A stretch of DNA of 64,000 bases from Escherichia coli (lineage in GTDB: Bacteria; Pseudomonadota; Gammaproteobacteria; Enterobacterales; Enterobacteriaceae), in assembly GCF_009931435.1 (NCBI RefSeq), contig NZ_CP043414.1, one strand, 5' to 3'. Positions 5,853 to 52,950 of this stretch are shown here, in pieces (the stretch's first letter is position 1; every line of letters begins with the position of its first letter). The position numbers and the translations under genes were made by a program. The notes under the pieces were generated by a model. The model was given only the letters and a program-made list of their open reading frames with translations, made no database searches and was not told the origin of the DNA.

Positions 5853-5960
<108 letters not shown>

Positions 5961-6088
5961 AAATATGCCCTTTAAGTATTTATCTGATTCTGCAACTGAA
6001 TCCTTCCGCTCAGGCTAACCCCGCCATTATCAACTATGCTTTTCTCTTAATTCGCTGAAAACAACAGTAAAAGAATGAGGAAAGCATC

Positions 6089-19876: not shown

Positions 19877-19886
19877 GCATCTTTCC

Positions 19887-20975
19887 TCACGGCAGGCGGT
19901 GGCGAGCTTGATAATAAGCCTGCCAGTGAGCTTCTTTATGTGTAGCGACACGTTGTTCGAAGTAACGGCGCAGACGTGCGCGATCTTCTTCGTTATCTTT
20001 GACGATGGTTCCGGCAATACAGTCCACCAGGTCGGCTGGCTCCCCCGCGCGATTCGCTAAAAACCAGGCGCGGACGCCCACGGCGTGGGCCACGTTAACG
20101 GCTTCAGCGGTGGACATAATCGCTGTAAAGGTATCCATTGAGGTTTTCTTTTCGCCGTTGGCACGCAGATCGCGGAAGGTGCGGACCAGTAACTCCAGTA
20201 CCGCGTCAGGCACTTTATGCGGAATGCCACTATGGGCCAATAAACGCGCCGAAGCACTGGCGACCAGTTCCAGTTCCTGGGCGAAATCCATAATCGGAAA
20301 GACAGTTTCAAAATCGAATCGACGTTTTAGTGCCGCGCTCATTTCATTAACGCCGCGATCGCGGGTATTGGCAGTGGCAATAATATTAAAGCCTTCTCGC
20401 GCATAGAGCTGACTGGCTTCACCAGTGAGTTCCGGCACCGTCATAACCCTGTCAGAAAGCATACCTAACAGACAGTCTTGTACTTCCAGTGGTGTACGCG
20501 TTATCTCTTCAAAACGGACAATTTTGCCGTCGCGCATTCCCTGGTAGAGCGGGGCAGGGACCAGCGCTTCCGTTGACGGACCATGATTAATAAGCAGGGC
20601 GTAGTTCCAGCCGTACTTGATTTGATCTTCGGTGGTAGATGCGCCGCCCTGGATAGTTAACCCAGCATCGCCGCTAATAGCGGTTGCCAGTAATTCAGAC
20701 AGGAGCGATTTTGCGGTGCCTGGTTCCCCCACCAACATCAAACCGCGCCCGGTAGCAAGAGTGACTAACATGCGTTCGACAGCGGAGGGACTAATCACGA
20801 CTTTACGGCTGATATTTTGCGCGCTATCGCCAAGAATAAAAGAACGGGCCGCAGGCAAACTTAACTGCCAACCGGGCGGGCAAGGTGCGTGATCATTTTG
20901 TTTTAATTTTGCCAGTTCATCGGCGTATAACACAGCGGCAGGTGGACGCTGCAGATGATTATTCTGCGGTGACAT
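19887..20975 (-). CDS. yehL: MoxR-like AAA+ ATPase YehL
   Basis: Walker A LVGEPGTAKS; start at MSPQNNHLQRPP has an AGGGA Shine-Dalgarno-like sequence upstream and gives 362 aa (the ORF-track start at 21041 has none). Confidence 0.8.
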   Translation of the reverse strand: MSPQNNHLQRPPAAVLYADELAKLKQNDHAPCPPGWQLSLPAARSFILGDSAQNISRKVVISPSAVERMLVTLATGRGLMLVGEPGTAKSLLSELLATAISGDAGLTIQGGASTTEDQIKYGWNYALLINHGPSTEALVPAPLYQGMRDGKIVRFEEITRTPLEVQDCLLGMLSDRVMTVPELTGEASQLYAREGFNIIATANTRDRGVNEMSAALKRRFDFETVFPIMDFAQELELVASASARLLAHSGIPHKVPDAVLELLVRTFRDLRANGEKKTSMDTFTAIMSTAEAVNVAHAVGVRAWFLANRAGEPADLVDCIAGTIVKDNEEDRARLRRYFEQRVATHKEAHWQAYYQARHRLP

Positions 20976-21094
20976 ATATTCATCCCTGAAATGTATTAAT
21001 GAAATAAAAGATATTTTACGCGCAATAAATGTTTGGCGCATTAGTTGTTTGAGCGGAAAATATCTGGAAAGCAGATCACAGTAAATAAAAAAAC

Positions 21095-25500: not shown

Positions 25501-26197
25501 CCTTAGAATGATAATGAGTCCGTGGGCATTCAAGGCCTATCAACTCATTGGCGATTTCTGGTTTCTCCGGGAGGATGAGTGCAATAAAAGGACGGCGAAC
25601 TTTGGGTATTCCTGGCAGTGCGGCAATGAGTTTGTCGGCGCAACGCTGCCAGCAGCTTTCCTCTGCCAGAGAGAGATGCTTACGCAGTCGGAGATCGAAT
25701 TCGTTATAGGTTTCTGAGCGATAACCATAGCCATAGCCATAGTCCTCCTTCTGATACTGCAATGTTACTACCAGAGGATCACTCTCATAACACCGTACAA
25801 TAAACTGGCGTGCAATCACCACCTCAGTCGCATATTCCAGCCCCTCTTGTTGGACGATTTCGTCGAGTAACTGTTGGCTATCATTTTGCGCGATACAGGC
25901 TAGCGCCGCCATTGTCCGGGCCGGAATTGAGGGTTTGTGCTCGCCGATCAAGTTGATGGCTTGCGTAATGGCCGACTGCCACTCCAGTGAAAAATTTTCA
26001 TAACGCCAGACAATGTTTTTTTTCTTCTCAGCAATGTGTAGCAATTTATCACCCAGTGTCTGGATGAGGCTTTCAGTGATAACAGGCACCGGTTCGCCCG
26101 GCCAATTGCGATGGCTGAGTGGTGTTTTGCCTTTTTTATATTTCAGTTCCAGTTGGGCGTTATCCGCCAGCCACGGTAATTCCTTGTCCATGCTCAT
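22541..26197 (-). CDS. yehI: Giant DUF4132-family protein YehI (no WGR domain)
   Basis: 1218-aa ORF; C-terminal region is paralogous to the two upstream genes (shared FDFGPRQFTV block); start is 4 bp from the upstream stop. Confidence 0.8.
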   Translation of the reverse strand: MSMDKELPWLADNAQLELKYKKGKTPLSHRNWPGEPVPVITESLIQTLGDKLLHIAEKKKNIVWRYENFSLEWQSAITQAINLIGEHKPSIPARTMAALACIAQNDSQQLLDEIVQQEGLEYATEVVIARQFIVRCYESDPLVVTLQYQKEDYGYGYGYRSETYNEFDLRLRKHLSLAEESCWQRCADKLIAALPGIPKVRRPFIALILPEKPEIANELIGLECPRTHYHSKEWLKVVANDPSAVRKLDHYWSQDIFSDREASYMSHENHFGYAACAALLREQGLAAVPRLAMYAHKEDCGSLLVQINHPQVIRTLLLVADKNKPSLQRVAKYSKNFPHATLAALAELLALKAPPARPGYPIIEDKKLPAQQKARDEYWHTLLQTLMASQPQLAEEVIPSLSTQARAVVNSYLSASPKPVIDSTNNSSLPEILVSPPWRGRKKTSITHFSLPELTLVPQAYKSPNKHWTPEQQTAIDHFSAMSFDERLANRGADTFLRELGFDVHSLEFNKRLLNGQLDAFDTQQLQEYTSIGLLHTYHAHQAKSKQYREEATKSLLAQDSIALMGGWRTFQHGFYYGNEKRWGIWNLYLIAQMPREMAVSCWQQIVAADFHYTGVEYLLSVLGTDALPGLITAFARHPKEIFPLLIHFGATELALPVARVWHRFAGQRNLARQWILQWPEHTATALIPLVYTKSSDNSEAALLALRLLYEQGHGELLQTVANRWQRTDVWPSLEQLLKQGPMDIYPARIPKAPDFWHPTMWSRPRIITNNQPVTDDALEIIGEMLRFTQGGRFYCGLEQLKTFCQPQTLAAFARDLFTAWQQAGAPAKDNWAFLALSLFGDESTARDLTTQILAWPQEGKSARAVSGLNILTLMNNDMALIQLHHISQRAKSRPLRDNAAEFLQVVAENRGLSQEELADRLVPTLGLDDPQALIFDFGPRQFTVRFDENLNPVIFDQQNVRQKSVPRLRADDDQLKAPEALARLKGLKKDATQVSKNLLPRLETALRTTRRWSLADFHSLFVNHPFTRLVTQRLIWAVYPANEPRRLLNAFRVAAEGEFCNAQDEPIDLPADDLIGIAHPLEMTAEMRSEFAQVFADYEIMPPFRQLMRRTVLLTPDESASNSLTRWEGKSATVGQLMGMRYKGWESGFEDACVYDLGEYRLVLKFSPGFNHYSADSKALMSFRSLRVYRDNKSVTFAALDVFDLSEALSAPDVIFH

Positions 26198-26200
26198 TCC

Positions 26201-29200
26201 TTATTCAAACAGGGCTTCGATGTCGTTAATTAACTCGCTAGCGGTGATGTCATCGAGTGCGGAGAACTGCGCTTCCTGTGTTGAATCAATCCCCCAGCCA
26301 TAGCTTTCTGCTTTGCCTTCCCATAGCCACAGCTTGCTTAAGAGTTGCTCGGCACTGAGTTCGGCTGGCGACATACCAACTGCAAATCCTTCATCGATTT
26401 CCATGATTAATGACCAGCGGCCCAGAGGTTTGATCATCCAGCCGATCCAGCCACCGTCCTGCGGTTCACCACGCATCCAGCCTTTATTCGCCAGCCCCAT
26501 TACCCGACCGCTCGGGCATTTTCTGCCTGCCCAGCGGGTCAATTCGCTGGCATTGCGCTCGGTTTCTGTCAGGGCGTAACTGTTACGGTCGAGCTGGCGG
26601 AACGGCGGTAGCAGTTCGTAGTCGGCAAAAAGCTGACCAAAGGCGGCAGCATCCGTGGGTGATATTTCCAGAACGTGAGGAATGCCAACAGAGATATCGC
26701 CTTCCGGCAGGGTGAAAAGATCATCGTCAGCGGTGCTGTAGCTGTTATCTTCCGCCACACGGAAGCACGCCAGTAACTGGTTGTCTGCGCTATAAATGCC
26801 CCAAATCAGACGGCGGGTTAAGTGGCAGACCAGCGGATGCTCAACCAGAAAGAGCTGAAAGTTTTCTGGCGACCAGCGGCGGCGCAGGCACATGGCGGAT
26901 TCCAGCCTTGCCACCTGCTGGGCGGCAACGGTACGCGCATCTTTTTTCAGCAGTTTGTAGCGGTTAACTGCATCGTTCGCTTGAGTTTCATCATCGCTTT
27001 TGTTCGGTTTAGGCAAGTCTTTCAGGCGGCTGCCGGAAGCATCACGCACAAACGGTTTTAAGGTTTCATCAAAGCTGACGGTGAACTGCCGTGGCCCGAA
27101 ATCCAGCAGCAGCGAACCGTTATCATCCAGACCGAGATCCGGTGCTAACCGGTCTTCAAGCTCCGCCACCGTGAGTTCGCGGCTCTCGGCAATGTCGGCA
27201 ATTTTTTCTTTTGCCCGCTCCTGTAATGCTTTGAATTTCAGTTTCTGGGCGATGCCGTTAAGCTGCATCAGGGCGATATCACTACCGATAGCAGCGAGAA
27301 TATCCAGCCCGACGGTGGCGCGTTTATGCTGGGATTCACCAGGCCAGGCGCGAATCAAAGGCGTCAGTTTGCGGGCGGTATCATCGTTGCCGAGAACACC
27401 TAACGCAGTGAACGCCCAGCTTTCTTTCGACGGTGCGCCAGCGGTCTGCCAGGCGGTAAACAGATCCCAGGCAAATTCAGCCAGTGAGTCGGCGGTACAG
27501 GCATCTTTCACCTGCAATAATCCCGCATACAGAGCCTCTTCCTGAGGGAAGCGGAGCATTTCACCGAGGTGGAGGAGGGCGTTATCTGGCAGTGATTGGG
27601 CGTTTGCTTTTAATACCGGGCGTGTCCAGAGCGATGGCTGATAAAAGGCCGGAAGTGTCGGGATTTTAGTCGGGTGATTATCTAAGGGATCGAGCGCAAG
27701 TAGAGCGTTCACCGCATCGGTTACTTCCGGCTGGTTATAACGCTGGGCGATTTCTTGCAGTAATGACGGATAACCACTTTCAATCAACATACGTAAGGCG
27801 GCGCGGGCGTTATCCTGGGCTTCACCAGCTTTGCCGAGTGCCGCAGGCAACAGGCCGATAATGGCATGTTCCGGATATTTCAGCAGCCAAGTGCGGGCGT
27901 CTTGTCGTAGAGTTTTGAGTTTGTTAAAGGCGCGGGCGACGGCAGGAGCCAGTTCCGTTGCGGCAAAATAATTAGCAACCGCAAAACCTTCTTGAGGGTA
28001 GCGTGAAAACGAGTGTAGAAAACCACTCATACCTGCCAGTCGCAAATAAAGCATGACAGGTTTTACCGCGGTATGCGGCTCTTTGCTGAGAAACTCCCAT
28101 AGTTTAATCGCTTTTTGCATAGGTAAAAAGGGAAGTGAGTTGAGATGCCACTCCCCCTGATACGGTGCATGGTGGGCTTTAAACATTTGGATGAGTGTAG
28201 CGAAGTCCTCACGTTCCCATGCGTCAATTGCCGAGTCAGAAGCGCCGATATATTTATATGTGTCAAAATCCCAGCGGCGATACCCCAGCGAGTAAAGGAA
28301 ATCTTTAGCACCTTCACCTGGCTTATGCGATTCCCAGTCCCAATGAGTTTGAAACTCTTTTGCTTCTGTGTCGGTTATTGTGCATATGGATTTGAGTTTG
28401 AGCGGTGCTAAATCCAACACCGGAATCGTCGATTTTTTCTTTTTCGAAAGCCAGGGAGGTAAGACTAATACGGCTGGCAGTAGAGCGGCGCAGGCATGGT
28501 TTGACGGTTGTATCAGTTGTTGCTGGCATGATTTCAGCACTTCAACTGCGGCTGTCGAGAGCCAGGGAGTGACCTGTTCTGCCAGTGCCGGTTGCGAGAT
28601 AAGCATCGTCATTAGCATAATGCGCCAACTATTCTCTTCTTTTTGCGCAAGAAGTTCCGCCAGTGCTGCCAGTGCTGCGTGTGGGAACGCAGCGCAGGCT
28701 TTCGTCATTCGATCGTGACAGCGTTTAGTAAGCCCGGCTACACGTATAAGCAGTGTTAATGCGAACGGATGATTGATATGACGCAACACATCGGCGCAGT
28801 AGTCACTTGCGGCATAGGGAGCAAATCGGGGCAGGGCTGCAACACCTTGCTCCTGTAATACGGTGGCTGACAATATCGCACCACAATAGTAATCATCAAA
28901 AATGGCATATGGCTCGTGATATTTTTCTAATGAGGCAAGAATGTGCTCATCAGTCGCCACTATTTTTAGCCACTCAAGCGAGGGTAATTTTTTTTTCCCC
29001 AGTAGACGCTGGGCAATTTCATGTGCAATTTCTGGTTTTTCGGGTAATAACAAAGCAATTAATGGTTGCCGCCATTCTGGAATATGTGGAATTGCGGCAA
29101 TAAGTTTTTGTGCACATTTTTGCCAGAGAGACTCTTCCGCCAGTGATAAATGTTTCCGTAGGCGTAATTCAAAACTGGAATATTGCTGCAGGTTATCAGG

Positions 29201-29989
29201 TGCAATACCAGACGGCAGAATAATAATGGTATTATTCGCATAATCCCATTCAATATCAATCTGTTGAAGATGTATTACTACATCAGTAGCATATTCCAGG
29301 CCACCTTCCTGAACGAGCTGATCCATAACATCCTCACGCTCTTTATATCTCGTGCACTTCAGTTCAAGTGCCGTGAGTACAGCCATTACTGGTGATGGTA
29401 ACTGTGTTGTTTTCAGGCAGTCGATCTGACTGAGCGCCTGGGAGATGGCGTTTTGCCATTCTAAAGAACAGGCGCTGAAATCAAATGTGGCTGTTTTATT
29501 ATCCCGTTGCGACACGCTACAGGCTAAGCGACGTAACTGGGTCAAGTTGTCTGCTTGCTGAACAGGAACTCCGGGAAAGCGGCGATGGCTTAACGTGGTG
29601 TGTACAACTTCGGGCGGAAAAACGACAGCAATATCTTTCGCCAGCCACGGTAAAACATCATCTGTATTTTTGTCAGCCACACGGGCTTCTGCTACGCAAA
29701 AGGGTTGTTCCTGAATAATGGTGGATAAGGCCGCTACCTTGAGAGAATCCGTTACCGTTTGGGAAGGTTGCAAAGAATTATCCTTCGCTTGCCCCACATA
29801 CCCCTTCTTCACCTTCTCCGCAATCAGCCTCAGTTCCGCTTTTTCCGCCGCCGCAGCATCAGCAAAGCTTTTTACCTGGCTTTGCCCGTTGGTACTGACT
29901 TTGCCCCAACTAATATGCAGCTCGTTTCCCTGTTGCTCCACTGCCCAGAATTTATGTGATTTTTCGTCCTGATAAATATAGGTTTTCAT
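26201..29989 (-). CDS. WGR-domain plus DUF4132 protein, molR/yehH-like paralog A (intact)
   Basis: 1262-aa ORF; N-terminus MKTYIYQDEKSHKFWAVEQQGNELHISWGKV is WGR-like; aaggaa Shine-Dalgarno-like sequence upstream; C-terminus ends LDDITASELINDIEALFE. Confidence 0.8.
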   Translation of the reverse strand: MKTYIYQDEKSHKFWAVEQQGNELHISWGKVSTNGQSQVKSFADAAAAEKAELRLIAEKVKKGYVGQAKDNSLQPSQTVTDSLKVAALSTIIQEQPFCVAEARVADKNTDDVLPWLAKDIAVVFPPEVVHTTLSHRRFPGVPVQQADNLTQLRRLACSVSQRDNKTATFDFSACSLEWQNAISQALSQIDCLKTTQLPSPVMAVLTALELKCTRYKEREDVMDQLVQEGGLEYATDVVIHLQQIDIEWDYANNTIIILPSGIAPDNLQQYSSFELRLRKHLSLAEESLWQKCAQKLIAAIPHIPEWRQPLIALLLPEKPEIAHEIAQRLLGKKKLPSLEWLKIVATDEHILASLEKYHEPYAIFDDYYCGAILSATVLQEQGVAALPRFAPYAASDYCADVLRHINHPFALTLLIRVAGLTKRCHDRMTKACAAFPHAALAALAELLAQKEENSWRIMLMTMLISQPALAEQVTPWLSTAAVEVLKSCQQQLIQPSNHACAALLPAVLVLPPWLSKKKKSTIPVLDLAPLKLKSICTITDTEAKEFQTHWDWESHKPGEGAKDFLYSLGYRRWDFDTYKYIGASDSAIDAWEREDFATLIQMFKAHHAPYQGEWHLNSLPFLPMQKAIKLWEFLSKEPHTAVKPVMLYLRLAGMSGFLHSFSRYPQEGFAVANYFAATELAPAVARAFNKLKTLRQDARTWLLKYPEHAIIGLLPAALGKAGEAQDNARAALRMLIESGYPSLLQEIAQRYNQPEVTDAVNALLALDPLDNHPTKIPTLPAFYQPSLWTRPVLKANAQSLPDNALLHLGEMLRFPQEEALYAGLLQVKDACTADSLAEFAWDLFTAWQTAGAPSKESWAFTALGVLGNDDTARKLTPLIRAWPGESQHKRATVGLDILAAIGSDIALMQLNGIAQKLKFKALQERAKEKIADIAESRELTVAELEDRLAPDLGLDDNGSLLLDFGPRQFTVSFDETLKPFVRDASGSRLKDLPKPNKSDDETQANDAVNRYKLLKKDARTVAAQQVARLESAMCLRRRWSPENFQLFLVEHPLVCHLTRRLIWGIYSADNQLLACFRVAEDNSYSTADDDLFTLPEGDISVGIPHVLEISPTDAAAFGQLFADYELLPPFRQLDRNSYALTETERNASELTRWAGRKCPSGRVMGLANKGWMRGEPQDGGWIGWMIKPLGRWSLIMEIDEGFAVGMSPAELSAEQLLSKLWLWEGKAESYGWGIDSTQEAQFSALDDITASELINDIEALFE

Positions 29990-30001
29990 TGCTAATTCCT
30001 T

Positions 30002-33000
30002 TTAATTAAACAGTGATTCAATGTCGTTAATCAGCTCGCTGGCGGTGATGTCGTCGAGTACGGAGAAAGTGGGTGAGGATTGCTTACCATAGCGATCATA
30101 AGGGGCGGTGATTTTTACGCTTTCGACAGGCAGCAGGTCGCTATACCCCGTTTCGCCATAAATTAATGAAAAAGGTTCTGTTTCAAGTTCGAGAGCGCCA
30201 TAAGGGGTAGATTTGCGCATCGCATAGACGCTGCCGCTTTCTTCCAGACGTTGCCAGCCTCGGCGCTCTAGCCCGACAATACGTCCGGCCTGACAGAGCT
30301 GTCCTTGCCAGCGTGTCAGGTCGTGGGTATTCCGTTCATTATCAGCAAGACGATAACTACCACGATCGAGCTGTTGGAAGGGGGGAAGCAGTTCGTAATC
30401 AGCGTAAATTTGCCTGAATGCAGCGGCAGATTCAGGGGGGATTTCCAGCACATGCGGTATACCGATGTTTCCTGCTGGCAGCGTGAATAACTCATCCTGC
30501 ATATCGCTGTAAGTGCTGTCTTCTGCGACCCGGAAGCAGGCAATCAGCGTGTTTTCCTCAGTATATACTCCCCATAACAGCCGTCGGGTTAAGTGACGTA
30601 CCAGCGGATGCTCCACCAGAAACAGGCGGAACTGTTCTGCCGTCCAGCGTCTGCGCTGGCACATAGCCTGCTCCAGACGATCAATCTGCTGACTGGCAAT
30701 GGCGCGCACATCTTTCTTCAATTGTTTGAAGAGGTTAACGGCGTCAGTTGCCAGTGTTTTATCATCGCTCTGATTTGGTTTGGGTAAATCTTTCAGGACT
30801 TTGCCGTTTGCATCGCGCACTACAGGTTTTAAGGTTTCGTCAAAACCAACGGTGAATTGACGTGGGCCGAAATCCAGTATCAGCGAGCCACTGCTATCAA
30901 GCCCTAAATCTGAAGCCAGGCGGTCTTCCAGTTCAGCCATTGTCAGTCCGCGATTTTCGGCGACCATATTGATTTTGTCGCGGGCGTGTTCCTGCAATGC
31001 TTTGAATTTAATCTTTTGTGCAATGCCATTAAGCAGCATCAGCGCAATATCGCTACCGATACTGGCTAACACATCCAGCCCAGAAACCGCACGTTTATGC
31101 TGGGATTCACCCGGCCAGACCCGGATAAGCGGGGTTAGTTTACGCGCGGTGTCGTCATTGCCTAAAATCCCCAGCGAGGTAAATGCCCAGTTTTCTTTTG
31201 CGGGCGCGCCAGATTCCATCCATGCCGTGTAGAGATCCCAGCCAAAGTCAGCCAGTGATTCCCGGGTGAAGATTTCTCTAATGATATCCAGTCCAGCGTA
31301 GGCGGTAATGTCGCGAGGGAAGCTCAACATAGTGCCCAGGTGGCGCATAGCGTCATCGGACAGAGGCAGATTGTTACTTTTAAGCCGTGGTCTGCGCCAT
31401 AAGGTGAACTGATAAAAGCCGGGCAGTGGGGCGATTTTTGCGGGATATTCTTCCAGCGGATCGCTATCGAACAATGTTGCCAGCGCAGCTAAAACATCTG
31501 GTTGATTATATCCTTGGGCAATTTCCTCAATCGTTTCTCGCTGGTTTAAATTCACCAGCAGGCGAAGCGCCTGGCGGGCACAATCACGATCTTTTCCTTG
31601 TTTGCCCAGTGCCACAGGAAGTAGCCCGGCGGTGGCATGGCGTGGGTAATCAGTTAGCCAGTTTCGCGTATCTTCATAAGACATTTTTTTCTGTAATTGT
31701 TGCGCCATCGGTAAGGCCAGGTCACTGACACCGAGGAAAAAGGGGAAGAAGCACAGACGTCGTGGATCACGTTGCAGGCAGGTCATAAATGAAGGTATGG
31801 CGGCGCTACCAAAAATTGCCAGAATATTTCCCTCATCAGAGTAGTTATCTTCTTTGACTATCTGGTTAAGAAAAGAAATGGCCTGTTGACCAGGCAGGTA
31901 ACAGAGGGCAATGAGATTCCAGCTTTTGTATGCATTGTTATGGTATTGCACAAATTCAGCATTGAGTGCTGGAAAATCGAAGCGTAGCAGGGCATCAACG
32001 GCGCTTTGTGGCGCCGGAATTTTTTCGTAGATTTTTTCTCCGCTTTCCCGCCATTTTTCAAAACCAAGATGCCACAGTATTTGTTGCTCCGGTGTAAGCG
32101 GTATTAAGTGTTTCTCCCAGCTTGCTTTTTTTATCGGCGGCAGGTCGGTAAACAATGTTTGTTTTGTCGCCTGCTGTTGGGCTATTTGCTGGAAGCGGGT
32201 GACAAGGTAAGTACGGGTTAGTCTTTTGGCAATCTCGGGAGTGACATCAGAAACAGAAGGAACTGGAAGCACTGGAAGATCAAACACAGGCGTATTTTTC
32301 TTTTTCTCTTTGGTCATCCAGGGCGGCGAAACAAACAGCTCCGGCAACATATCCACAGTGGCATATTCACATTCTTCAGCTACTGGCTGCGGACGACATT
32401 CAGATAAGATGCCTGCCGCTTTAGCATTAACCCAGGGAATGACGTCACATACCAACTCTGGCCTGATGGTAATCAGTTTGATAAGTGCGTTACGCCACTG
32501 TGCATCTTCGTGTATTGCAAGCAAAGTAGCATAAGCGGCAATAGCTGCAGCGGGATGTTTTTGACAGGCTTTGCTTAAGTATTCCAGGTGCTTTTTCTTG
32601 CCAATCACAGCGAGGATCAGAATTTGAATCGCATCCGGGTGATTCGTTTTCCATAGCCATTTGACAAGATTTTCAGTCTCGCTGTTGCGCTCGAAAAGAT
32701 AAGTGGGATTGTCAGAATGCTCTTCCGTAAACTCAAGAAGGATCTGGCTTACACCCCGAATTCCATTATTCGCCAGCAACATTGCCAGATAAGCGCGAAA
32801 ATTACGAAAATCACGATACAACGGTGGGAAGTCGTATTTTTCCACTGTACTCAGAGCAGTATCATCGGTTATCACCAGTCTTAACCAGGTCATCGCCGGA
32901 ACGTTTTGGTCTGCATAGCGTAGAGCCATAGCATTGGCAATATCCGGGCGTTCAGGGAGCAGTAACGCGGCAAAAGGTTGCCGTGCTGGAGATAGCGAGG

Positions 33001-33811
33001 GAATAGCCGCGAGTACTTTATCTACACAGCGTTGCCACTCATCTTCTGAAGTGAGTGAAAGATGATGACATAGACGTTGATGCCAACTAGGTAGCGATTC
33101 TGCTTCGTGATTAGGTGGAATGATGGTGGTTACTGCGCCTTTTACTGGTTTATATTTGAGTTGAATAGCGAGAAGGGCAATTTCAACGGCACTTTCCAGA
33201 CCACAGCGAATGACTAAGTCATCGACCAATTCATCTGCAGAGTAAGAGTTCCAAAAACTCCAAAGCAATGCTGCATCAGATTGCGCACTTCCTGTCTGTT
33301 GACTACCCAGAATTCGCATTTGTAACTCAGCAAACGCCTGCTGCCAGTTTTCTGGATAAGAACGGTAATTGTTGTCGGGATCATATGCCCTGGTGTTATC
33401 TGCAATACGCTTCCATATCTCACCGTCTTTGCGCAGATAATTGATCTCTCTGGGGCGAGAGCGATGTGGAAAAGCAAATCGGTTAATATCGTCGGTTAGC
33501 GGAATGGCTGCATCATCAGCCAGCCATGGGCGTTTGTTTTTACTCTCAGGTGAAGTTTCAACTTCAGGAGTGACTTTGGTGACGGGGGGGATATGCACGT
33601 TTGCCGAAGCGTCTTCCACATAGCCTTTTTTCGTTTTCTCAGCGATAAGCTTCAGTTCCGCTTTTTCCGCCGCCGCAGCATCCGCAAAGCTTTTTATCTG
33701 GCTTTGCCCTTGGGTGCCAACTTTTCCCCAACTGATATGCAACTCGTTACCTTGCTGCCCCACCGCCCAGAATTTATGCGATTTTTCGTCCTGATAGATA
33801 TAACTCTTCAT
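30002..33811 (-). CDS. WGR-domain plus DUF4132 protein, molR/yehH-like paralog B (intact)
   Basis: 1269-aa ORF; N-terminal 65 aa nearly identical to paralog A; agggaa Shine-Dalgarno-like sequence upstream; C-terminus ends LDDITASELINDIESLFN. Confidence 0.8.
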   Translation of the reverse strand: MKSYIYQDEKSHKFWAVGQQGNELHISWGKVGTQGQSQIKSFADAAAAEKAELKLIAEKTKKGYVEDASANVHIPPVTKVTPEVETSPESKNKRPWLADDAAIPLTDDINRFAFPHRSRPREINYLRKDGEIWKRIADNTRAYDPDNNYRSYPENWQQAFAELQMRILGSQQTGSAQSDAALLWSFWNSYSADELVDDLVIRCGLESAVEIALLAIQLKYKPVKGAVTTIIPPNHEAESLPSWHQRLCHHLSLTSEDEWQRCVDKVLAAIPSLSPARQPFAALLLPERPDIANAMALRYADQNVPAMTWLRLVITDDTALSTVEKYDFPPLYRDFRNFRAYLAMLLANNGIRGVSQILLEFTEEHSDNPTYLFERNSETENLVKWLWKTNHPDAIQILILAVIGKKKHLEYLSKACQKHPAAAIAAYATLLAIHEDAQWRNALIKLITIRPELVCDVIPWVNAKAAGILSECRPQPVAEECEYATVDMLPELFVSPPWMTKEKKKNTPVFDLPVLPVPSVSDVTPEIAKRLTRTYLVTRFQQIAQQQATKQTLFTDLPPIKKASWEKHLIPLTPEQQILWHLGFEKWRESGEKIYEKIPAPQSAVDALLRFDFPALNAEFVQYHNNAYKSWNLIALCYLPGQQAISFLNQIVKEDNYSDEGNILAIFGSAAIPSFMTCLQRDPRRLCFFPFFLGVSDLALPMAQQLQKKMSYEDTRNWLTDYPRHATAGLLPVALGKQGKDRDCARQALRLLVNLNQRETIEEIAQGYNQPDVLAALATLFDSDPLEEYPAKIAPLPGFYQFTLWRRPRLKSNNLPLSDDAMRHLGTMLSFPRDITAYAGLDIIREIFTRESLADFGWDLYTAWMESGAPAKENWAFTSLGILGNDDTARKLTPLIRVWPGESQHKRAVSGLDVLASIGSDIALMLLNGIAQKIKFKALQEHARDKINMVAENRGLTMAELEDRLASDLGLDSSGSLILDFGPRQFTVGFDETLKPVVRDANGKVLKDLPKPNQSDDKTLATDAVNLFKQLKKDVRAIASQQIDRLEQAMCQRRRWTAEQFRLFLVEHPLVRHLTRRLLWGVYTEENTLIACFRVAEDSTYSDMQDELFTLPAGNIGIPHVLEIPPESAAAFRQIYADYELLPPFQQLDRGSYRLADNERNTHDLTRWQGQLCQAGRIVGLERRGWQRLEESGSVYAMRKSTPYGALELETEPFSLIYGETGYSDLLPVESVKITAPYDRYGKQSSPTFSVLDDITASELINDIESLFN

Positions 33812-44869: not shown

Positions 44870-45006
44870 TCGCAACCAAACGACTCGGGGTGCCCTTCTG
44901 CGTGAAGGCTGAGAAATACCCGTATCACCTGATCTGGATAATGCCAGCGTAGGGAAGTCACAGACCACCAGGTCATTGCTTCTTCACGTTATGGCAGGAG
45001 CAAACT
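44870..45006 (+). promoter_or_regulatory. Thiamine pyrophosphate (TPP) riboswitch in the thiM leader
   Basis: Canonical aptamer ggggtgcccttctgcgtgaaggctgagaaatacccgtatcacctgatctggataatgccagcgtagggaa, then an expression platform containing the ggcaggag Shine-Dalgarno sequence just before the thiM ATG. Confidence 0.9.
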
Positions 45007-45795
45007 ATGCAAGTCGACCTGCTGAGTTCCGCGCAATCAGCGCACGCGTTAAACCTCTTTTACCAACACTCTCCTCTTGTGCATTGCATGACCAATGATG
45101 TGGTGCAAACCTTTACTGCCAATACTTTACTGGTGCTCGGTGCATCGCCAGCGATGGTTATCGAAGCAGAAGAGGCCAGTCAATTTGCGGCTATCGCCAG
45201 TGCCTTGCTAATTAACGTCGGCACGCTGACGCAGCCACGCGCACAGGCAATGCGTGCTGCCGTTGAACAGGCAACACACTCCCAAACGCCCTGGACGCTT
45301 GATCCGGTCGCGGTTGGCGCACTCGATTATCGTCGCCGTTTTTGTCATGAACTTTTATCTTTTAAACCGACAGCGATACGTGGTAATGCTTCGGAAATCA
45401 TGGCATTAGCTGGCGTTGCTAATGGTGGACGGGGAGTGGACACCACTGACGCCGCGGCTAACGCGATACCTGCTGCACAAACACTGGCACGGGAAACTGG
45501 CGCAATCGTCGTGGTCACTGGCGAGGTGGATTATATTACCGATGGTCGTCGCACCGTTGGCATTCACGGCGGCAATTCGTTAATGACCAAAGTGGTAGGA
45601 ACTGGCTGTGCATTATCGGCAGTTGTCGCTGCCTGTTGTGCATTACCAGGCGATATGCTGGAAAATATCGCATCTGCCTGTCACTGGATGAAACAAGCCG
45701 GAGAACGCGCCGTCGCCAGAAGTGAAGGGCCTGGCAGTTTTGTTCCCCATTTTCTTGATGCGCTCTGGCAATTGACGCAGGAGGTGCAGGCATGA
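45007..45795 (+). CDS. thiM: Hydroxyethylthiazole kinase
   Basis: 262-aa ORF directly downstream of the TPP riboswitch; overlaps thiD by 4 nt. Confidence 0.9.
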
Positions 45796-46647: not shown

Positions 46648-47475
46648 ATGAAACCAATGCAGCTGAGAATCACCAGTCGAAAAAAATTCACCGCTTTATT
46701 ATGCGCTCTTGGGCTAATTTCCATCGTTGCAATTTATCCGCGTCAGACGGTGAATTTTTTCTATTCGACAGCAATTCAGATTAAAGACTACATCCACTTC
46801 TACGGTTATCGTCCGGTTAAATCTTTCGCTATTCGCATTCCTGCCAGTTACACCATTCACGGAATAGATGTTTCGCGCTGGCAGGAGCGGATCGACTGGC
46901 AGCGGGTGGCAAAAATGCGCGATAACGGTATTCGCTTGCAATTTGCCTTTATCAAGGCGACGGAAGGCGAAAAACTGGTGGACCCGTATTTTTCGCGTAA
47001 CTGGCAACTAAGCCGCGAAAATGGCCTGTTGCGTGGGGCGTATCATTATTTTTCCCCGTCGGTATCCGCCTCAGTTCAGGCGCGATTATTTCTGCAAACG
47101 GTGGATTTTGCCCACGGTGATCTCCCTGCTGTGCTGGACGTAGAAGAGCGCGGAAAATTATCGGCGAAGGAATTACGCAAGCAGGTAAGTCAGTGGCTAA
47201 AAATGGTCGAAAAAAGCACAGGAAAAAAGCCGATTATTTATGCAGGCGCGACGTTTTATCACACGAATCTGGCGGGGTATTTCAATGAATATCCGTGGTG
47301 GGTGGCTCACTATTATCAACGTCGTCCGGACAATGACGGCATGGCCTGGCGCTTCTGGCAGCATTCCGACCGTGGACAGGTAGATGGCATTAATGGTCTG
47401 GTGGATTTTAATGTGTTTAATGGCACGGTGGAGGAGCTGCAGGGATTCGTTGATGGGATTAAAGAAACGCCTTAA
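46648..47475 (+). CDS. yegX: Glycoside hydrolase family 25 (lysozyme-like) protein; start uncertain
   Basis: 275-aa ORF with N-terminal hydrophobic segment and GH25-like sequence. Confidence 0.75.
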   Translation: MKPMQLRITSRKKFTALLCALGLISIVAIYPRQTVNFFYSTAIQIKDYIHFYGYRPVKSFAIRIPASYTIHGIDVSRWQERIDWQRVAKMRDNGIRLQFAFIKATEGEKLVDPYFSRNWQLSRENGLLRGAYHYFSPSVSASVQARLFLQTVDFAHGDLPAVLDVEERGKLSAKELRKQVSQWLKMVEKSTGKKPIIYAGATFYHTNLAGYFNEYPWWVAHYYQRRPDNDGMAWRFWQHSDRGQVDGINGLVDFNVFNGTVEELQGFVDGIKETP

Positions 47476-47526: not shown

Positions 47527-48273
47527 ATGGAACAAGCGCATACCCAGCTGATTGCCCAACTGAACGAACGTATTTTAGCGGCGGATAACACGCCGCTTTA
47601 TATTAAGTTTGCCGAAACGGTGAAAAATGCCGTGCGCAGCGGGGTGCTGGAACATGGCAATATTTTACCCGGCGAGCGCGATTTAAGTCAGTTAACCGGC
47701 GTTTCGCGCATTACGGTGCGCAAGGCGATGCAGGCGCTGGAAGAAGAGGGCGTGGTGACACGTTCGCGCGGCTACGGCACGCAGATTAATAACATCTTTG
47801 AATACTCGTTAAAAGAAGCGCGAGGATTTTCTCAGCAGGTGGTGTTGCGCGGGAAAAAGCCCGATACGCTATGGGTTAACAAGCGAGTGGTTAAATGCCC
47901 TGAAGAGGTGGCGCAGCAATTGGCGGTCGAAGCGGGTAGTGATGTCTTTTTGCTTAAGCGTATTCGCTATGTTGATGAAGAAGCGGTCTCTATTGAGGAG
48001 TCGTGGGTTCCGGCGCATTTAATTCATGATGTTGATGCCATCGGAATCTCTCTTTATGACTACTTCCGCAGTCAGCATATTTTTCCAAAGCGTACCCGTT
48101 CCCGCGTTAGCGCCCGGATGCCGGATGCCGAGTTTCAGTCACATATTCAATTAGATAGTAAAATACCGGTGCTGGTGATCAAGCAAGTGGCGCTTGACCA
48201 ACAGCAACGGCCTATTGAGTACAGCATCAGCCACTGTCGCAGTGATCTATACGTTTTTGTGTGTGAGGAGTAG
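47527..48273 (+). CDS. yegW: GntR-family transcriptional regulator
   Basis: 248-aa ORF; N-terminal winged helix-turn-helix, UTRA-like C-terminal domain. Confidence 0.8.
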   Translation: MEQAHTQLIAQLNERILAADNTPLYIKFAETVKNAVRSGVLEHGNILPGERDLSQLTGVSRITVRKAMQALEEEGVVTRSRGYGTQINNIFEYSLKEARGFSQQVVLRGKKPDTLWVNKRVVKCPEEVAQQLAVEAGSDVFLLKRIRYVDEEAVSIEESWVPAHLIHDVDAIGISLYDYFRSQHIFPKRTRSRVSARMPDAEFQSHIQLDSKIPVLVIKQVALDQQQRPIEYSISHCRSDLYVFVCEE

Positions 48274-49212
48274 TTCCTCGCGGGTTGGCGCGCAATCACC
48301 GCCGCGATGCCCGACAACCCACGACGCCACTGCATTGCCCAGCAATACGGCATCCGCCAGTGGCAAACCAGAGGCCAGTCCAGCTAATACGCCACCTGCA
48401 TGACTGTCGCCCGCCCCAATGGTGTCTACAACTTGCGTTGGAAATGCCGGGATGCAGCCAGAAGCGTTATTGCTGAAATACCATGCGCCTTCTTTATCGA
48501 GACGAACGATCAACGGCGCGGCAAATTTCTCCTGCCATTGCTTGCCAAGTGTTGTTATCTCTGCTGATAAAGCAAAACGTTCGGCGGCAATCTCACCCTC
48601 CTGACGATTGAGTGACACTAAAGGTCGACAGGCCATGATTCGCGCCAGTAATGCATCCGGGATATCGCCAATACGTGGGCCAAAATCGATGAACGGCGTC
48701 ACGTCTTGCAGACTCTCCAGCCATTCCACTAACAATTCACCGCAGGGCGAGGCCAGTTGATAACCAGAAAAATAGAGCAGGCTGCCAGGCGCAACGGTTA
48801 ATCGCGCCAACCATTCGCGATTCCACTGATTTTCCACACCACTGAACGACATAAACGTGCGTTCACCATCAGGCTCAACCAGCGCCAGACACCAGCCGTT
48901 ATCGCCTTCGGCGTTATCGATGAGGCTGATTAATCCTTCTTTCGCCATCCGGTTACGAATAATTTCCGCCCACACACCCTGGCCGAGCGGCAGGGCATTA
49001 CCCGCTTCGATACCGAGGCGCTTTAACGCCACGGCAATATTCAGTGCGCAGCCGCCAACGTTAACGCTCTGCTGTTTCAGTTCGATATCGCACCCACGCC
49101 AGGGGAGGGCATAAGCGTCGGCGATCACATCAATGACTGCCGCGCCGACGACCATCACCGGCTGACGCGTGGTTAATTCAGGCAGCAGCGTGTGTAATCG
49201 AGCGCCGCTCAT
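48247..49212 (-). CDS. yegV: PfkB-family carbohydrate/nucleoside kinase
   Basis: 321-aa ORF; ribokinase-family motifs (GAGDSHAGG); 3' end overlaps convergent yegW. Confidence 0.8.
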   Translation of the reverse strand: MSGARLHTLLPELTTRQPVMVVGAAVIDVIADAYALPWRGCDIELKQQSVNVGGCALNIAVALKRLGIEAGNALPLGQGVWAEIIRNRMAKEGLISLIDNAEGDNGWCLALVEPDGERTFMSFSGVENQWNREWLARLTVAPGSLLYFSGYQLASPCGELLVEWLESLQDVTPFIDFGPRIGDIPDALLARIMACRPLVSLNRQEGEIAAERFALSAEITTLGKQWQEKFAAPLIVRLDKEGAWYFSNNASGCIPAFPTQVVDTIGAGDSHAGGVLAGLASGLPLADAVLLGNAVASWVVGHRGGDCAPTREELLLTHKNV

Positions 49213-50213
49213 GCCGCCTCCCGTTGTTGGCGATACTTTGCCAGCGCCGTGGCATAATGATTAAAATCAAGCTGATTTACCGCATCCAGCTCCGTCTTAA
49301 ACGCAGGATCGATAGCGTTAACGCCATGCAATGCGCCGCAAATCGCCGTCGCCATAGCGCCGATGGTGTCTGTGTCGCCGCCAAGGTTAGCGCACAGGAT
49401 GGCGCAACGGTTCGGGTCGGTTTGTGCCAGTTCAACCAGCGCAATGGCGCACGGAACGGACTCAATAGTACTGGTACCTGCCCCAACCACCTGATACAGC
49501 TGTTCGCTGGCGGATTCGGTGCCGTCGGCATTGCGCACAATTTTCAGCGCAATCTCCAGACGTGCTGCCAGTGAGGCGCTGAAGGTAGTGATGCGTTTTT
49601 GCTGTGCATGTCGCGCAATCGAGGGTAGAGAATCAACAATCGCTGACCAGCTTTCTCCGTCAATGGCACGGGAAATCGCCCATGCGATGACTACCGCACC
49701 TGCCACCGCCAGATCGGATTTATGGGTCGGGCTGGACGCCAGCGCCACATCATCAATAAAGGAATCAACATTGCGCGCCGGAAGCAAACAACCTAATGGC
49801 GAGACGCGCATCGCTGCGCCGTTGGTCACGCCATTGTTTTCCAGTTCAGCAACGGGTTTACCGTCGCGAATGGCGTTAAGCGCAATCTTCGAGGTCGGAC
49901 CTAGTACGTTTTTGTTAAAGGCGTCGAAACGCAGCGCCCAGTCGAGAATATTACGCCCAATCAGATCCGGATCGATCTTGCCTTCACGTTCCAGTAACGC
50001 ATCCGCCAGACACAGCGCCATCGAGGTATCGTCGGTGAATTCGGCGCGGTTAAAATAACAGGCCGCGTTATTCTCCTTTGGTCCAGGAAGAAAACGGTCA
50101 ATCCAGCCAAAGTGTGCTTTAACGCGGCTGCGTGGCCAAAGCTCGGAGGGCATCCCCATCGCATCCCCTAACGCCTGCCCATAAAGAGCACCGAGAATAC
50201 GTTCTGTTTTCAT
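49209..50213 (-). CDS. yegU: ADP-ribosylglycohydrolase-family protein
   Basis: 334-aa ORF; overlaps yegV and yegT junctions. Confidence 0.8.
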   Translation of the reverse strand: MKTERILGALYGQALGDAMGMPSELWPRSRVKAHFGWIDRFLPGPKENNAACYFNRAEFTDDTSMALCLADALLEREGKIDPDLIGRNILDWALRFDAFNKNVLGPTSKIALNAIRDGKPVAELENNGVTNGAAMRVSPLGCLLPARNVDSFIDDVALASSPTHKSDLAVAGAVVIAWAISRAIDGESWSAIVDSLPSIARHAQQKRITTFSASLAARLEIALKIVRNADGTESASEQLYQVVGAGTSTIESVPCAIALVELAQTDPNRCAILCANLGGDTDTIGAMATAICGALHGVNAIDPAFKTELDAVNQLDFNHYATALAKYRQQREAA

Positions 50214-51487
50214 TTAACTTCCCCTTGTGTCAACGCAATATCGCGATCATCGACCTTGATAGCCGTAATTTCGTTGTCGGATTCGCGGAAAAAAATCATG
50301 AACAGCACGGCGATAATGGCAATCATCACCGCGCCGAAAGTCCACATCCCGGACCAGTTGAAAGTCAGTCCGTTTACCGGTTCCGGATAAGCGAACATCT
50401 TTTCCATCATCACACCGCCAAGACGATAGCCGAGCAAACTGCCGAATCCCTGGCAGCAGAGCGTGATCAGCCCCTGCGCAGCGGTACGCATATGCACGGG
50501 GGCTTTTTTATCGACATAGATGTAAGCGGTAACGTAGTAAAAATCGTAACTTACGCCATGCAGCAAAATGCCGAGGAACAGTAACGCGTAGGTGAAATAT
50601 TCATCCGCACTACCGTAAATAAAGAAGCCATAGCGGATCGCTGCGGTGACCAGACCAAGTAATAATACCTTTTTGATACCAAAGCGTTTAGTGAAAAACG
50701 GTAATGCCAGCATAAAGAATATTTCAGAGAACTGGCCGAGCGTCATCCAGCCGGTGGCATTTTTCATGCCGACTTCGGTCAGATAACCGTTGGCAAAGAT
50801 GTAATAGAACGCCAGTGGCATCGCAAACAGGAATGAACAGAAGAAAAAGACGAGGAAGTTTTTATCGCGCAGCAGGATCAGCGCATCCAGGCCGAGCATG
50901 ACTTTAATATCCATTTTGCCGGTGCTTTTTGGTGGCGTGTCGGGCAGGAAAAACGCAAACACACCGAGCAGAGCAGAACTTCCGGCGGTAATCAGCAGCG
51001 GGATGTTAGTCGGTGAGATATCGGCATACCCCAGTATTTGCGGCAAGAAACCACATGCCAGACCGGAGGCAATCCAGCCGATAGTGCCCATCACACGAAT
51101 GCGCGGGAAATCACGCTCAACATCCGGCACGTTGGCAAAAGCGATGCTGTTAGTCAGCGCAATGGTCGGCATATAGGTTAGCGAGTAGGCCAGCAGTAAC
51201 GGGAAGAACCCGGCAAAAGTGGTCTGTTGCGCAGCGAAATACATCAGCAGCGCGCCTGCGAACATCAATACCGCCAGCACTTTCTGCGCCGAGAAAAAGC
51301 GGTCAGTGATGGAGCCAACCAGAATTGGCGACAGGATCGCCGCAATGGCGGTACAGGCATACGACCAGCCAATTTCTCCGGCACTAAAACCGCTTTTACT
51401 TAACCACAACCACAATGGCACAAACCACGCGCCCCAGATAAACCATTCAACAAACATCATGAACGACAGCTTTGCTGTTGTTTTCAT
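50210..51487 (-). CDS. yegT: MFS nucleoside:H+ symporter-family transporter
   Basis: 425-aa polytopic membrane ORF. Confidence 0.8.
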   Translation of the reverse strand: MKTTAKLSFMMFVEWFIWGAWFVPLWLWLSKSGFSAGEIGWSYACTAIAAILSPILVGSITDRFFSAQKVLAVLMFAGALLMYFAAQQTTFAGFFPLLLAYSLTYMPTIALTNSIAFANVPDVERDFPRIRVMGTIGWIASGLACGFLPQILGYADISPTNIPLLITAGSSALLGVFAFFLPDTPPKSTGKMDIKVMLGLDALILLRDKNFLVFFFCSFLFAMPLAFYYIFANGYLTEVGMKNATGWMTLGQFSEIFFMLALPFFTKRFGIKKVLLLGLVTAAIRYGFFIYGSADEYFTYALLFLGILLHGVSYDFYYVTAYIYVDKKAPVHMRTAAQGLITLCCQGFGSLLGYRLGGVMMEKMFAYPEPVNGLTFNWSGMWTFGAVMIAIIAVLFMIFFRESDNEITAIKVDDRDIALTQGEVK

Positions 51488-51743
51488 CTTTTAATTCCTT
51501 CATGACAGGTAATGTAAGGTACACGATGACAATACCACTTAATAATACCTTTTAAATACCTTTGCGGTGAAAACTTGACCGCGCTAACATTTTTTCTGAT
51601 GAATCGAGCCAACAGAAAACGCTGAAAAAACATCCAAAAGATGGAAAAACTCGCCCGTAACGACCAGGATTATGATTGCCCGCAAAAGGCGGGCCAGGAC
51701 AATCCATAGCCGATATCCAATCGGAATTTACGGGAGCATAGTA

Positions 51744-52799: not shown

Positions 52800-52950
52800 G
52801 CCTCATACGAACAGCACCACCCCGTAGGACGGATAAGGCGTTTACACTGCATCCGGCAACCTATGCCTGATGCGACGCGGAAGCGTCTTATCATGCCTAC
52901 ATAGCACTGCCACGTATGTTTACACCGCATCCGGCATAAAAACACGCGCA
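52800..52950. repeat. REP/BIME cluster
   Basis: ggacggataaggcgtttacactgcatccggcaa and gcctgatgcgacgc REP-like palindromes after fbaB. Confidence 0.65.

Follow-up and report, generated by a model that had tools for sequence, protein, structure and literature searches.

The yegTUV operon of Escherichia coli: a candidate repeated operator for the repressor GgaR and a proposed riboside pathway for its transporter, hydrolase and kinase

Layout and conservation of the yegTUVW locus

We analysed 64,000 nucleotides of Escherichia coli DNA (contig NZ_CP043414.1; this whole stretch is called the window below), and the subject of this study is the yegTUV operon within it, together with the repressor gene yegW, also named ggaR. 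Three genes lie on the minus strand. The first gene of the operon, yegT (50210-51487, 425 aa), encodes a transporter of the NHS family; yegU (49209-50213, 334 aa) encodes an ARH-fold di-metal glycohydrolase of the ADP-ribosylglycohydrolase family; and the third and last gene, yegV (48247-49212, 321 aa), encodes a PfkB-family kinase. Convergent with yegV on the plus strand is yegW (47527-48273, 248 aa), whose product is a GntR/HutC-type repressor with a UTRA effector domain. The four genes and their lengths match the RefSeq annotation of the best E. coli match, and the 4.5-kb yegTUVW region has 98.0-98.8% DNA identity to the best-matching E. coli chromosomes.

The gene identities proposed in an earlier, sequence-only reading of this DNA agree with Pfam (Nuc_H_symport, ADP_ribosyl_GH, PfkB and GntR plus UTRA) and with RefSeq. 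Its description of three linked minus-strand genes beside a convergent GntR regulator was confirmed in coordinates and overlaps, and experiments have established both the existence of the operon and its regulation by YegW (PMC10819704). The locus corresponds to a published core operon of E. coli, yegTUV, and the repressor dedicated to it, YegW/GgaR, and it is the same locus as yegTUV and ggaR of E. coli K-12 in genes, order, lengths and overlaps, with no essential difference. Its annotation is at textbook level, its regulation was published in 2024, and the sequence-only observation as stated adds nothing new to this. The operator sequence in its two copies, a terminator candidate and the comparative evidence on the hydrolase-kinase pair, all described below, are small additions to the published picture. 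That the locus is a known GgaR-controlled operon unrelated to the WGR-domain genes of the same window is, in our judgement, very probable.

The yegTUV region is at least 80% covered in 5416 of 5426 complete E. coli genomes, at 95-99% identity. In Pectobacterium, yegTUVW is present and is not flanked by fbaB and thiD as in Enterobacteriaceae, which indicates that the four genes travel as a module. The operon is thus part of the E. coli core and is shared by many Enterobacterales. Under laboratory conditions it is kept under tight repression, and the pairing of hydrolase and kinase is met again in distant bacteria, frequently as one fused gene.

The genes of the operon are joined by short overlaps. 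The yegT stop and the yegU start share an ATGA at 50210-50213 on the minus strand (sequence GTTAAATGAAAAC), the yegU stop and the yegV start share another at 49209-49212, also on the minus strand (sequence GCGGCATGAGC), and each ATGA junction is preceded by a Shine-Dalgarno-like purine run (GGGGAAG and GGGAGG). The convergent coding ends of yegV and yegW overlap by 27 nt (48247-48273, both strands). Among 79 related loci from Enterobacterales, 68 have a T/U overlap of 4 nt, 56 a U/V overlap of 4 nt and 71 a convergent V/W overlap of 27 nt. A 4-nt overlap is by itself unremarkable and is frequent in bacterial operons; the yegTUV overlaps are nonetheless conserved. The ATGA overlaps couple the translation of yegT, yegU and yegV and should therefore help to hold transporter, hydrolase and kinase in step. 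Elsewhere in the window thiM and thiD also overlap by 4 nt (45792-45795), which shows that such overlaps are ordinary.

Repression by GgaR and a repeated operator candidate

YegW matches Pfam GntR (3.1e-16, 59.2 bits) and UTRA (6.1e-36, 123.8 bits). With an N-terminal GntR winged helix and a C-terminal UTRA domain it belongs to the HutC subfamily, and it scores under every named equivalog cut-off, PhnF and HutC included. Saito et al. (2024) renamed YegW as GgaR and found one chromatin immunoprecipitation-microarray (ChIP-chip) peak genome-wide, identifying it as a single-target repressor of yegTUV (PMC10819704). GgaR binds a 190-bp fragment upstream of yegT and, more weakly, a probe (probe-5) that covers nt 571-869 of the yegT open reading frame (ORF) (PMC10819704). 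In a ggaR mutant, yegT and yegV Northern probes show the same mRNA of ∼3.3 kb, for which the wild type gives no signal; yegTUV mRNA is up ∼30-fold without GgaR, with the divergent fbaB unchanged (PMC10819704). In vitro, GgaR is released from DNA by ADP-glucose at 10-100 uM and not by glucose or ADP, and loss of ggaR raises glycogen and impairs growth in minimal glucose medium (PMC10819704). No GgaR binding motif is reported in that study (PMC10819704).

Upstream of yegT we found three GGTAT repeats, spaced 11 and 13 bp. A 27-nt pattern built from these repeats, GGTATNNAAAAGGTATTATTANNTGGT, has exactly 2 matches in the window where 0 are expected by chance, and no further copy of the operator occurs elsewhere in the window. 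The proposed primary operator O1 (51534-51560, minus strand, GGTATTTAAAAGGTATTATTAAGTGGT) has direct GGTAT repeats 11 bp apart. The proposed secondary operator O2 (50654-50680, minus strand, GGTATCAAAAAGGTATTATTACTTGGT) has the same orientation, lies 880 bp downstream of O1 and falls inside yegT at ORF nt 808-834. O1 is within the published 190-bp GgaR-bound fragment and O2 is within the weaker-binding probe-5 (fragments from PMC10819704). We propose that the two published GgaR sites correspond to the two copies of this predicted 27-nt direct-repeat operator. Across 22 upstream regions, from Escherichia to Pectobacterium, the operator core AAAGGTATTT(A/T)AAAGGTATTAT is nearly invariant and its flanks diverge.

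A comparable arrangement was seen in a distant cluster (L082) with a YegU homologue 56% identical to YegU and a GntR/UTRA regulator 31% identical to YegW. Its divergent spacer contains two AACTGGAYTTA direct repeats 11 bp apart (5940-5970 of that contig). Their architecture is like that of the E. coli AAAGGTATTTA repeats and their sequence is different, which suggests that operator and regulator have co-evolved.

O1 lies in the spacer between the divergent genes fbaB and yegT. Because the annotated E. coli start of fbaB is at 51744 (350 aa), the spacer is 256 bp long (51488-51743); the mechanical fbaB ORF begins at an upstream ATG (374 aa) and would add the stretch 51672-51743 on the plus strand. 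A sigma-70-like promoter candidate on the minus strand (51542-51571) consists of TTCACC, an 18-nt spacer and TATTAT, with 9 of 12 matches. The candidate -10 element TATTAT (51542-51547) sits inside O1, and the candidate -35 varies between genera. We tentatively place O1 over the -10 of the yegT promoter; since O1 would cover this element, repression by occlusion would be explained. The same spacer contains a CRP-like site at 51574-51589, a TGTTA-N6-TCAAG half-palindrome that is conserved across genera, and CRP binding in the fbaB/yegT spacer has been found by genomic systematic evolution of ligands by exponential enrichment (SELEX) (PMC3105977). A scan of the window with the CRP consensus was not enriched (194 matches against 221 expected); because the bare pattern is not significant, the case for this site is its conservation and the published SELEX result. 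Rfam returned no RNA element in the yegT leader.

At the other end of the operon, RNA folding of 48100-48260 on the minus strand gave -55.4 kcal/mol (z = -3.19) and pointed to a terminator-like hairpin with a U-rich tail at 48153-48212 (minus strand). The hairpin is 3' of the yegV stop, within the yegW coding sequence and antisense to the yegW 3' end. It came from folding; a simple scan for terminators gave no convincing candidate either between the convergent genes or beyond them. On the folding model the hairpin is a plausible yegTUV terminator, and the distance from the candidate promoter to the hairpin, ∼3.4 kb, agrees with the 3.3-kb transcript seen in the Northern blot (PMC10819704). An RNA-seq-based list of excludons includes the yegV/yegW pair (PMC12288877), and from this listing we infer that induced yegTUV transcription may interfere with yegW. 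Full induction of yegTUV may then lower its own repressor, a possible positive-feedback switch.

Domains, active sites and known relatives of YegT, YegU and YegV

YegT matches Pfam Nuc_H_symport (PF03825) at 1.4e-183 and 610.9 bits against a threshold of 25.9, and reaches 652.8 bits with TIGR00889 (cut-off 446.1), above the threshold of the NHS family. It shares family and fold with NupG and XapB, and also the GxxxD protonation motif in the middle of transmembrane helix 10 (TM10): YegT G311-V-S-Y-D315 aligns with NupG G319-D323, as also described in PMC11979927. Of the ten pocket or protonation residues compared with NupG, five are kept (R136, T140, Q261, E264 and the protonation Asp D323) and five differ (F143W, Q225A, N228Y, Y318H and F322Y). 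Xiao et al. (2025) determined the YegT crystal structure, which has the NupG fold, and by isothermal titration calorimetry (ITC) detected no significant binding to it for uridine, adenosine, cytidine or guanosine (PMC11979927; PDB 8ZOJ). The protein encoded here differs from the crystallised K-12 protein (8ZOJ) only by Q368P (codon 368, 50384-50386), in a loop near the C-terminal domain, and by the K267A change engineered in the latter.

YegU matches Pfam ADP_ribosyl_GH (PF03747) at 3.3e-66 and 224.3 bits against 26.2. Its AlphaFold model has a predicted local distance difference test score (pLDDT) of 97.7 and the all-alpha ARH fold, with MJ1187 (TM 0.82/0.90), ARH3 and DraG (TM 0.72-0.79) and a Thermus ARH-related protein as the best fold matches. 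The all-alpha fold, the di-metal site and the catalytic Glu are common to YegU, ARH3, DraG, Tri1 and MJ1187. E24, T60-D61-D62 and D280-D282-T283 of YegU align to E41, T76-D77-D78 and D314-D316-T317 of ARH3, and among 121 representatives of the YegU family D61, D62, D280 and D282 are at least 98% conserved. By this alignment YegU has a complete predicted ARH-type di-metal active site, with the catalytic Glu and all six metal-site residues. It is far under the equivalog cut-offs for DraG (TIGR02662, 80.3 vs 337.05 bits) and Tri1 (NF041672, 71.6 vs 490 bits). We take ARH3 to hold the adenine of ADP-ribose between F143 and Y149, which line up with YegU N126 and V129; a 3-residue gap nearby makes the loop alignment uncertain, and both positions are variable among the 121 representatives. 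On this uncertain alignment the adenine-stacking positions appear not to be conserved. YegU differs from ARH3, DraG and Tri1 also in its genomic coupling to a transporter and a kinase, not to a transferase or target protein. These positions hint that the YegU substrate may carry no adenosine moiety. In a profile and fold search of the PDB we found no characterised small-molecule enzyme near YegU; the nearest structure, MJ1187, is itself of no known function.

YegV matches Pfam PfkB (PF00294) at 1.6e-54 and 185.7 bits against 25.8. Relative to E. coli ribokinase it keeps G53-G54, N58, the NxxE motif (N-R-Q-E) and G266-A-G-D269, which includes the catalytic Asp, and from its sequence it is predicted to be a catalytically complete PfkB kinase. 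We take N14, D16, K43, N46, E143 and D255 to be the ribose contacts of E. coli RbsK. D16, N46 and D255 are kept in YegV, D28 aligning with D16, and YegV has V26, C55 and A154 where RbsK has N14, K43 and E143. The altered pattern is found also in 10 ARH-linked or ARH-fused PfkB domains and in 8 orthologues. YegV reaches no NCBIfam equivalog cut-off, ribokinase included (TIGR02152, 80 vs 299.65 bits; NF008353, 58.7 vs 341 bits), and a 2025 survey still lists it as an uncharacterised sugar kinase.

Hydrolase-kinase pairs and fusions in distant bacteria

A word-indexed search for YegU homologues gave only close orthologues, and distant ones were reached by an exhaustive search of cluster representatives, which found 7049 homologues at E <= 0.001. 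Fourteen of the 150 best YegU homologues are about twice the normal length. Nine of 10 long homologues scanned are ARH+PfkB fusions, and both domain orders occur. In the unfused state, a PfkB gene stands beside the YegU homologue in all 4 of the distant contigs read. One of these loci combines a GntR/UTRA regulator, ARH, an NCS1 transporter and PfkB; another has ARH, PfkB, NCS1 and a nucleoside phosphorylase; the remaining two have ARH, NCS1 and PfkB, and ARH and PfkB. A fused ARH-PfkB gene is accompanied by a GntR/UTRA regulator, an ECF transporter, NCS1, a phosphopentomutase-like gene and DeoC. The conserved core is therefore hydrolase plus kinase; the transporter varies (NHS, NCS1, ECF), and the regulator, where present, is of the GntR/UTRA type.

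A second fused locus (L092, 86-4172) has ARH-PfkB in an operon of overlapping genes with an NCS1 transporter and an isochorismatase-family hydrolase. The isochorismatase family includes nicotinamidase, and the locus is a single example on a short contig; it is a possible hint that some ARH-PfkB members process pyridine or amide-bearing ribosides.

A proposed riboside pathway and its alternatives

We consider it probable that yegTUV serves the catabolism or salvage of a nucleoside-like ribosyl compound. The sequence-only reading had suggested that a ribosylated or nucleoside-like substrate is taken up and processed, and as a reading this stands; the coupling of hydrolase and kinase is backed by the fusions and the adjacency in distant bacteria. 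In the more specific form that we narrowly favour, a non-canonical riboside is imported, phosphorylated at the 5' position and cleaved to ribose-5-phosphate and an aglycone, under GgaR control and with no tie to the WGR genes. YegT would import the riboside, YegV would phosphorylate the 5'-OH of its ribose, and YegU would then hydrolyse the ribosyl C1 bond to yield ribose-5-phosphate and the aglycone. The phosphorylated, nucleotide-like intermediate would inactivate GgaR, and ADP-glucose may mimic that intermediate. To our knowledge, all characterised ARH enzymes cut the C1'' bond of a ribose that bears a 5''-phosphate ester, i.e. ADP-ribose. We favour the kinase step before the hydrolase step, though the chances are evenly balanced, because known ARH substrates are 5''-phosphorylated, YegV is without three presumed ribose contacts, and GgaR answers to a nucleotide sugar and not to glucose or ADP.

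Tentatively, and with more doubt than confidence, we suggest that YegTUV and the ARH-PfkB pairs and fusions form an undescribed pathway for the uptake and breakdown of a non-canonical riboside beyond the reach of the standard nucleoside enzymes. Its substrate might, for example, be an alpha-linked riboside, a compound like ribosyl-adenosine that is left when ADP-ribosylation or poly(ADP-ribose) is broken down, or a riboside of biosynthetic origin like aminoimidazole riboside. If this is true, YegU would be the founding ARH-fold enzyme for small-molecule nutrition, as opposed to the reversal of protein modification.

Several points weigh against the favoured pathway. Literature searches found no paper that defines a substrate for YegT, YegU or YegV. 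The ARH metal site holds the 2''- and 3''-hydroxyls of the ribose, so an unphosphorylated riboside may fit too and the order of the steps is not fixed. The best family-level similarity of YegV is to ribokinase, though far under the cut-off, and the residue arguments for YegU and YegV rest on low-identity pairwise alignments and on presumed ligand contacts of ribokinase and ARH3. The only published phenotype concerns glycogen, which the favoured pathway would explain only indirectly. On the regulatory side, the tentative overlap of the operator with the -10 element hangs on a candidate promoter and an unmapped start site.

The closest alternative reverses the two enzymatic steps. YegU would split the imported riboside to free sugar and aglycone and YegV would phosphorylate the ribose, following the logic of a Rih hydrolase with ribokinase. 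Ribokinases are among the top NCBIfam and PDB similarities of YegV, which keeps D28, equivalent to the presumed ribose contact D16, and the catalytic D269, and ARH/PfkB fusion and adjacency are compatible with either order. Against it stand the replacements V26, C55 and A154 at the ribokinase positions N14, K43 and E143, which are never Lys or Asn in ARH-linked kinases, the distance of YegV from the ribokinase equivalog cut-off, the RbsK that E. coli already owns, and the 5''-phosphate of known ARH substrates. We regard a hydrolase-first order as unlikely, though a serious rival. Improbable as the primary function, and more so than the reversed order, is the model of Saito et al. (2024), in which YegTUV enlarges the pool of ADP-glucose, either importing or synthesising it, and GgaR, as an ADP-glucose sensor, sets glycogen storage. 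Deletion of ggaR gives 2- to 3-fold more glycogen, and the selective release of GgaR by ADP-glucose fits the model; yegTUV mRNA rises ∼3-fold with more glucose in a GgaR-dependent manner, and a yegV deletion scored low-glycogen in an earlier screen (PMC10819704). We accept these data; the model rests on mutant phenotypes and one gel shift, with neither enzymology nor ggaR/yegTUV epistasis reported, and glycogen synthesis rises as growth slows (PMC10819704). Because the ggaR mutant grows poorly and slow growth raises glycogen synthesis, its glycogen phenotype may be secondary. It is not obvious how a glycohydrolase and a PfkB kinase would make ADP-glucose, and the ligands tried on GgaR left out ADP-ribose and other nucleotide-like compounds. 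Elsewhere, ARH-PfkB sits with nucleobase or nucleoside transporters, a nucleoside phosphorylase, a phosphopentomutase-like gene and DeoC, and not with glg genes.

Another conceivable role for YegU, in the manner of DraG, Tri1 or ARH3, is to remove ADP-ribose from proteins or nucleic acids and so undo a modification that is regulatory or made by a toxin. The ARH fold and full catalytic site of YegU would suit this role, and its closest characterised relatives are all ADP-ribosyl hydrolases; we nevertheless think it very improbable. YegU falls far below the DraG and Tri1 cut-offs given above, and the presumed adenine-stacking residues of ARH3 appear to be replaced, at positions that vary in the family. 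Its gene is translationally coupled to those of a transporter and a sugar kinase, and PfkB-fused elsewhere. No ADP-ribosyltransferase was found in the neighbourhood, and YegU has no match in PADLOC.

Two known systems resemble the pathway that we favour. The psuT-psuK-psuG genes (yeiM-yeiC-yeiN) are like yegTUV in combining a nucleoside transporter, a 5'-phosphorylating PfkB kinase and a glycosidase that releases ribose-5-phosphate and a base. In this pathway of E. coli pseudouridine catabolism, PsuG has a different fold and cleaves a C-glycoside, and the transporter is of the NupC type. The other system is the STM4065-4066-4067 operon of Salmonella Typhimurium, where STM4065 is reportedly a permease and control reportedly lies with STM4068, a repressor of the GntR type. 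PMC3161100, citing Dougherty and Downs (2003), describes in this operon a PfkB kinase that phosphorylates aminoimidazole riboside and is paired with an ADP-ribosylglycohydrolase gene. It differs from yegTUV in the PfkB subfamily and in gene order, and YegV matches the aminoimidazole riboside (AIRs) kinase 1TYY at E = 9e-4 only. The paper on the ribose kinase RikA/STM3547 was considered as a lead to the substrate and set aside, since another PfkB gene cluster is its subject.

Knowing the substrate would assign a role to a large family whose members carry only the annotation 'ADP-ribosylglycohydrolase family protein', and would help to decide if the reported glycogen phenotype is a direct one. 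With the operator sequence and the evidence from fusions, this question becomes more tractable.

The WGR/DUF4132 genes and other neighbours

The sequence-only reading had also remarked, as speculation, on a functional link between YegU and WGR-domain genes about 17 kb away. The distance is a fair figure, the two WGR genes being 15.4 and 19.2 kb from yegU. Both are on the minus strand (26201-29989 and 30002-33811) and encode an N-terminal WGR domain followed by DUF4132, and a third minus-strand gene (22541-26197) encodes DUF4132 and no WGR. The three DUF4132 genes (22541-33811) are intact, with products of 1218, 1262 and 1269 aa, and their neighbours at 14480-21041 (minus strand) encode AAA_5, DUF5682, VWA_CoxE and SWIM domains. 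WGR and DUF4132 are the only domains found in the three large proteins, with no poly(ADP-ribose) polymerase (PARP) catalytic domain, and PADLOC gave no match for YegV, the DUF4132/WGR proteins or the yehLMPQ-like proteins.

That YegU works with these WGR-domain proteins in an ADP-ribose-related system is scarcely credible. In its favour are the co-location in the window and the occurrence of WGR domains in PARPs, and nothing else. Several unrelated transcription units lie between the loci: between the WGR genes and yegV we find metG with its own strong terminator, apbC, yehE, the yehDCBA fimbrial genes, rcnBA, rcnR, thiMD with its thiamine pyrophosphate (TPP) riboswitch, yegX and yegW. GgaR has a single genomic target (PMC10819704), and no GgaR operator-like sequence was found near the WGR genes in the window. 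Of 5426 E. coli genomes, 433 cover at least 80% of the region of the two WGR genes, most of them at 90-95% identity, which marks the region as hypervariable. In strain FG92-1 an IS1 with a deletion from yehR to metG has removed the whole WGR/yehLMPQ block and yegTUVW is intact. The yegTUVW-type module occurs elsewhere without WGR neighbours; no WGR or DUF4132 neighbour was found at the distant ARH-PfkB loci read, nor at yegTUVW of Pectobacterium. The intervening units, the lack of a PARP domain and of a shared operator, the discordant conservation and the FG92-1 deletion all speak against the functional link. The single ChIP-chip peak, the lack of an operator and the counts of 433 against 5416 of 5426 genomes likewise speak against co-regulation and co-inheritance of yegTUV with the WGR genes. 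The sequence-only reading had held that it would be refuted by a defined nucleoside salvage function that has neither a regulatory nor a physical connection to the WGR proteins; the lack of a connection agrees with what we observe, and salvage of a nucleoside-like compound is a probable role rather than a defined one. A functional tie of yegTUV to the WGR/DUF4132 genes is not supported, and the WGR connection should be dropped.

On the yegW side of the locus, a TPP riboswitch (44876-44972, plus strand; 71.5 bits, above the gathering score) lies upstream of thiM-thiD. Between thiD and yegW is yegX (46648-47475, plus strand), which encodes a lysozyme-like protein of glycoside hydrolase family 25. 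In Citrobacter, Salmonella, Enterobacter and others thiD directly adjoins yegW. Because only Escherichia loci carry yegX at this position, it looks like a lineage-specific insertion outside the module. A functional tie of yegTUV to the adjacent thiMD was considered and dropped, the adjacency being lost in Pectobacterium and the idea having no other support. On the opposite flank, just 3' of fbaB, is a naRNA4/REP-like element (52827-52897, plus strand), at 56.1 bits slightly under the Rfam gathering score of 59.5.

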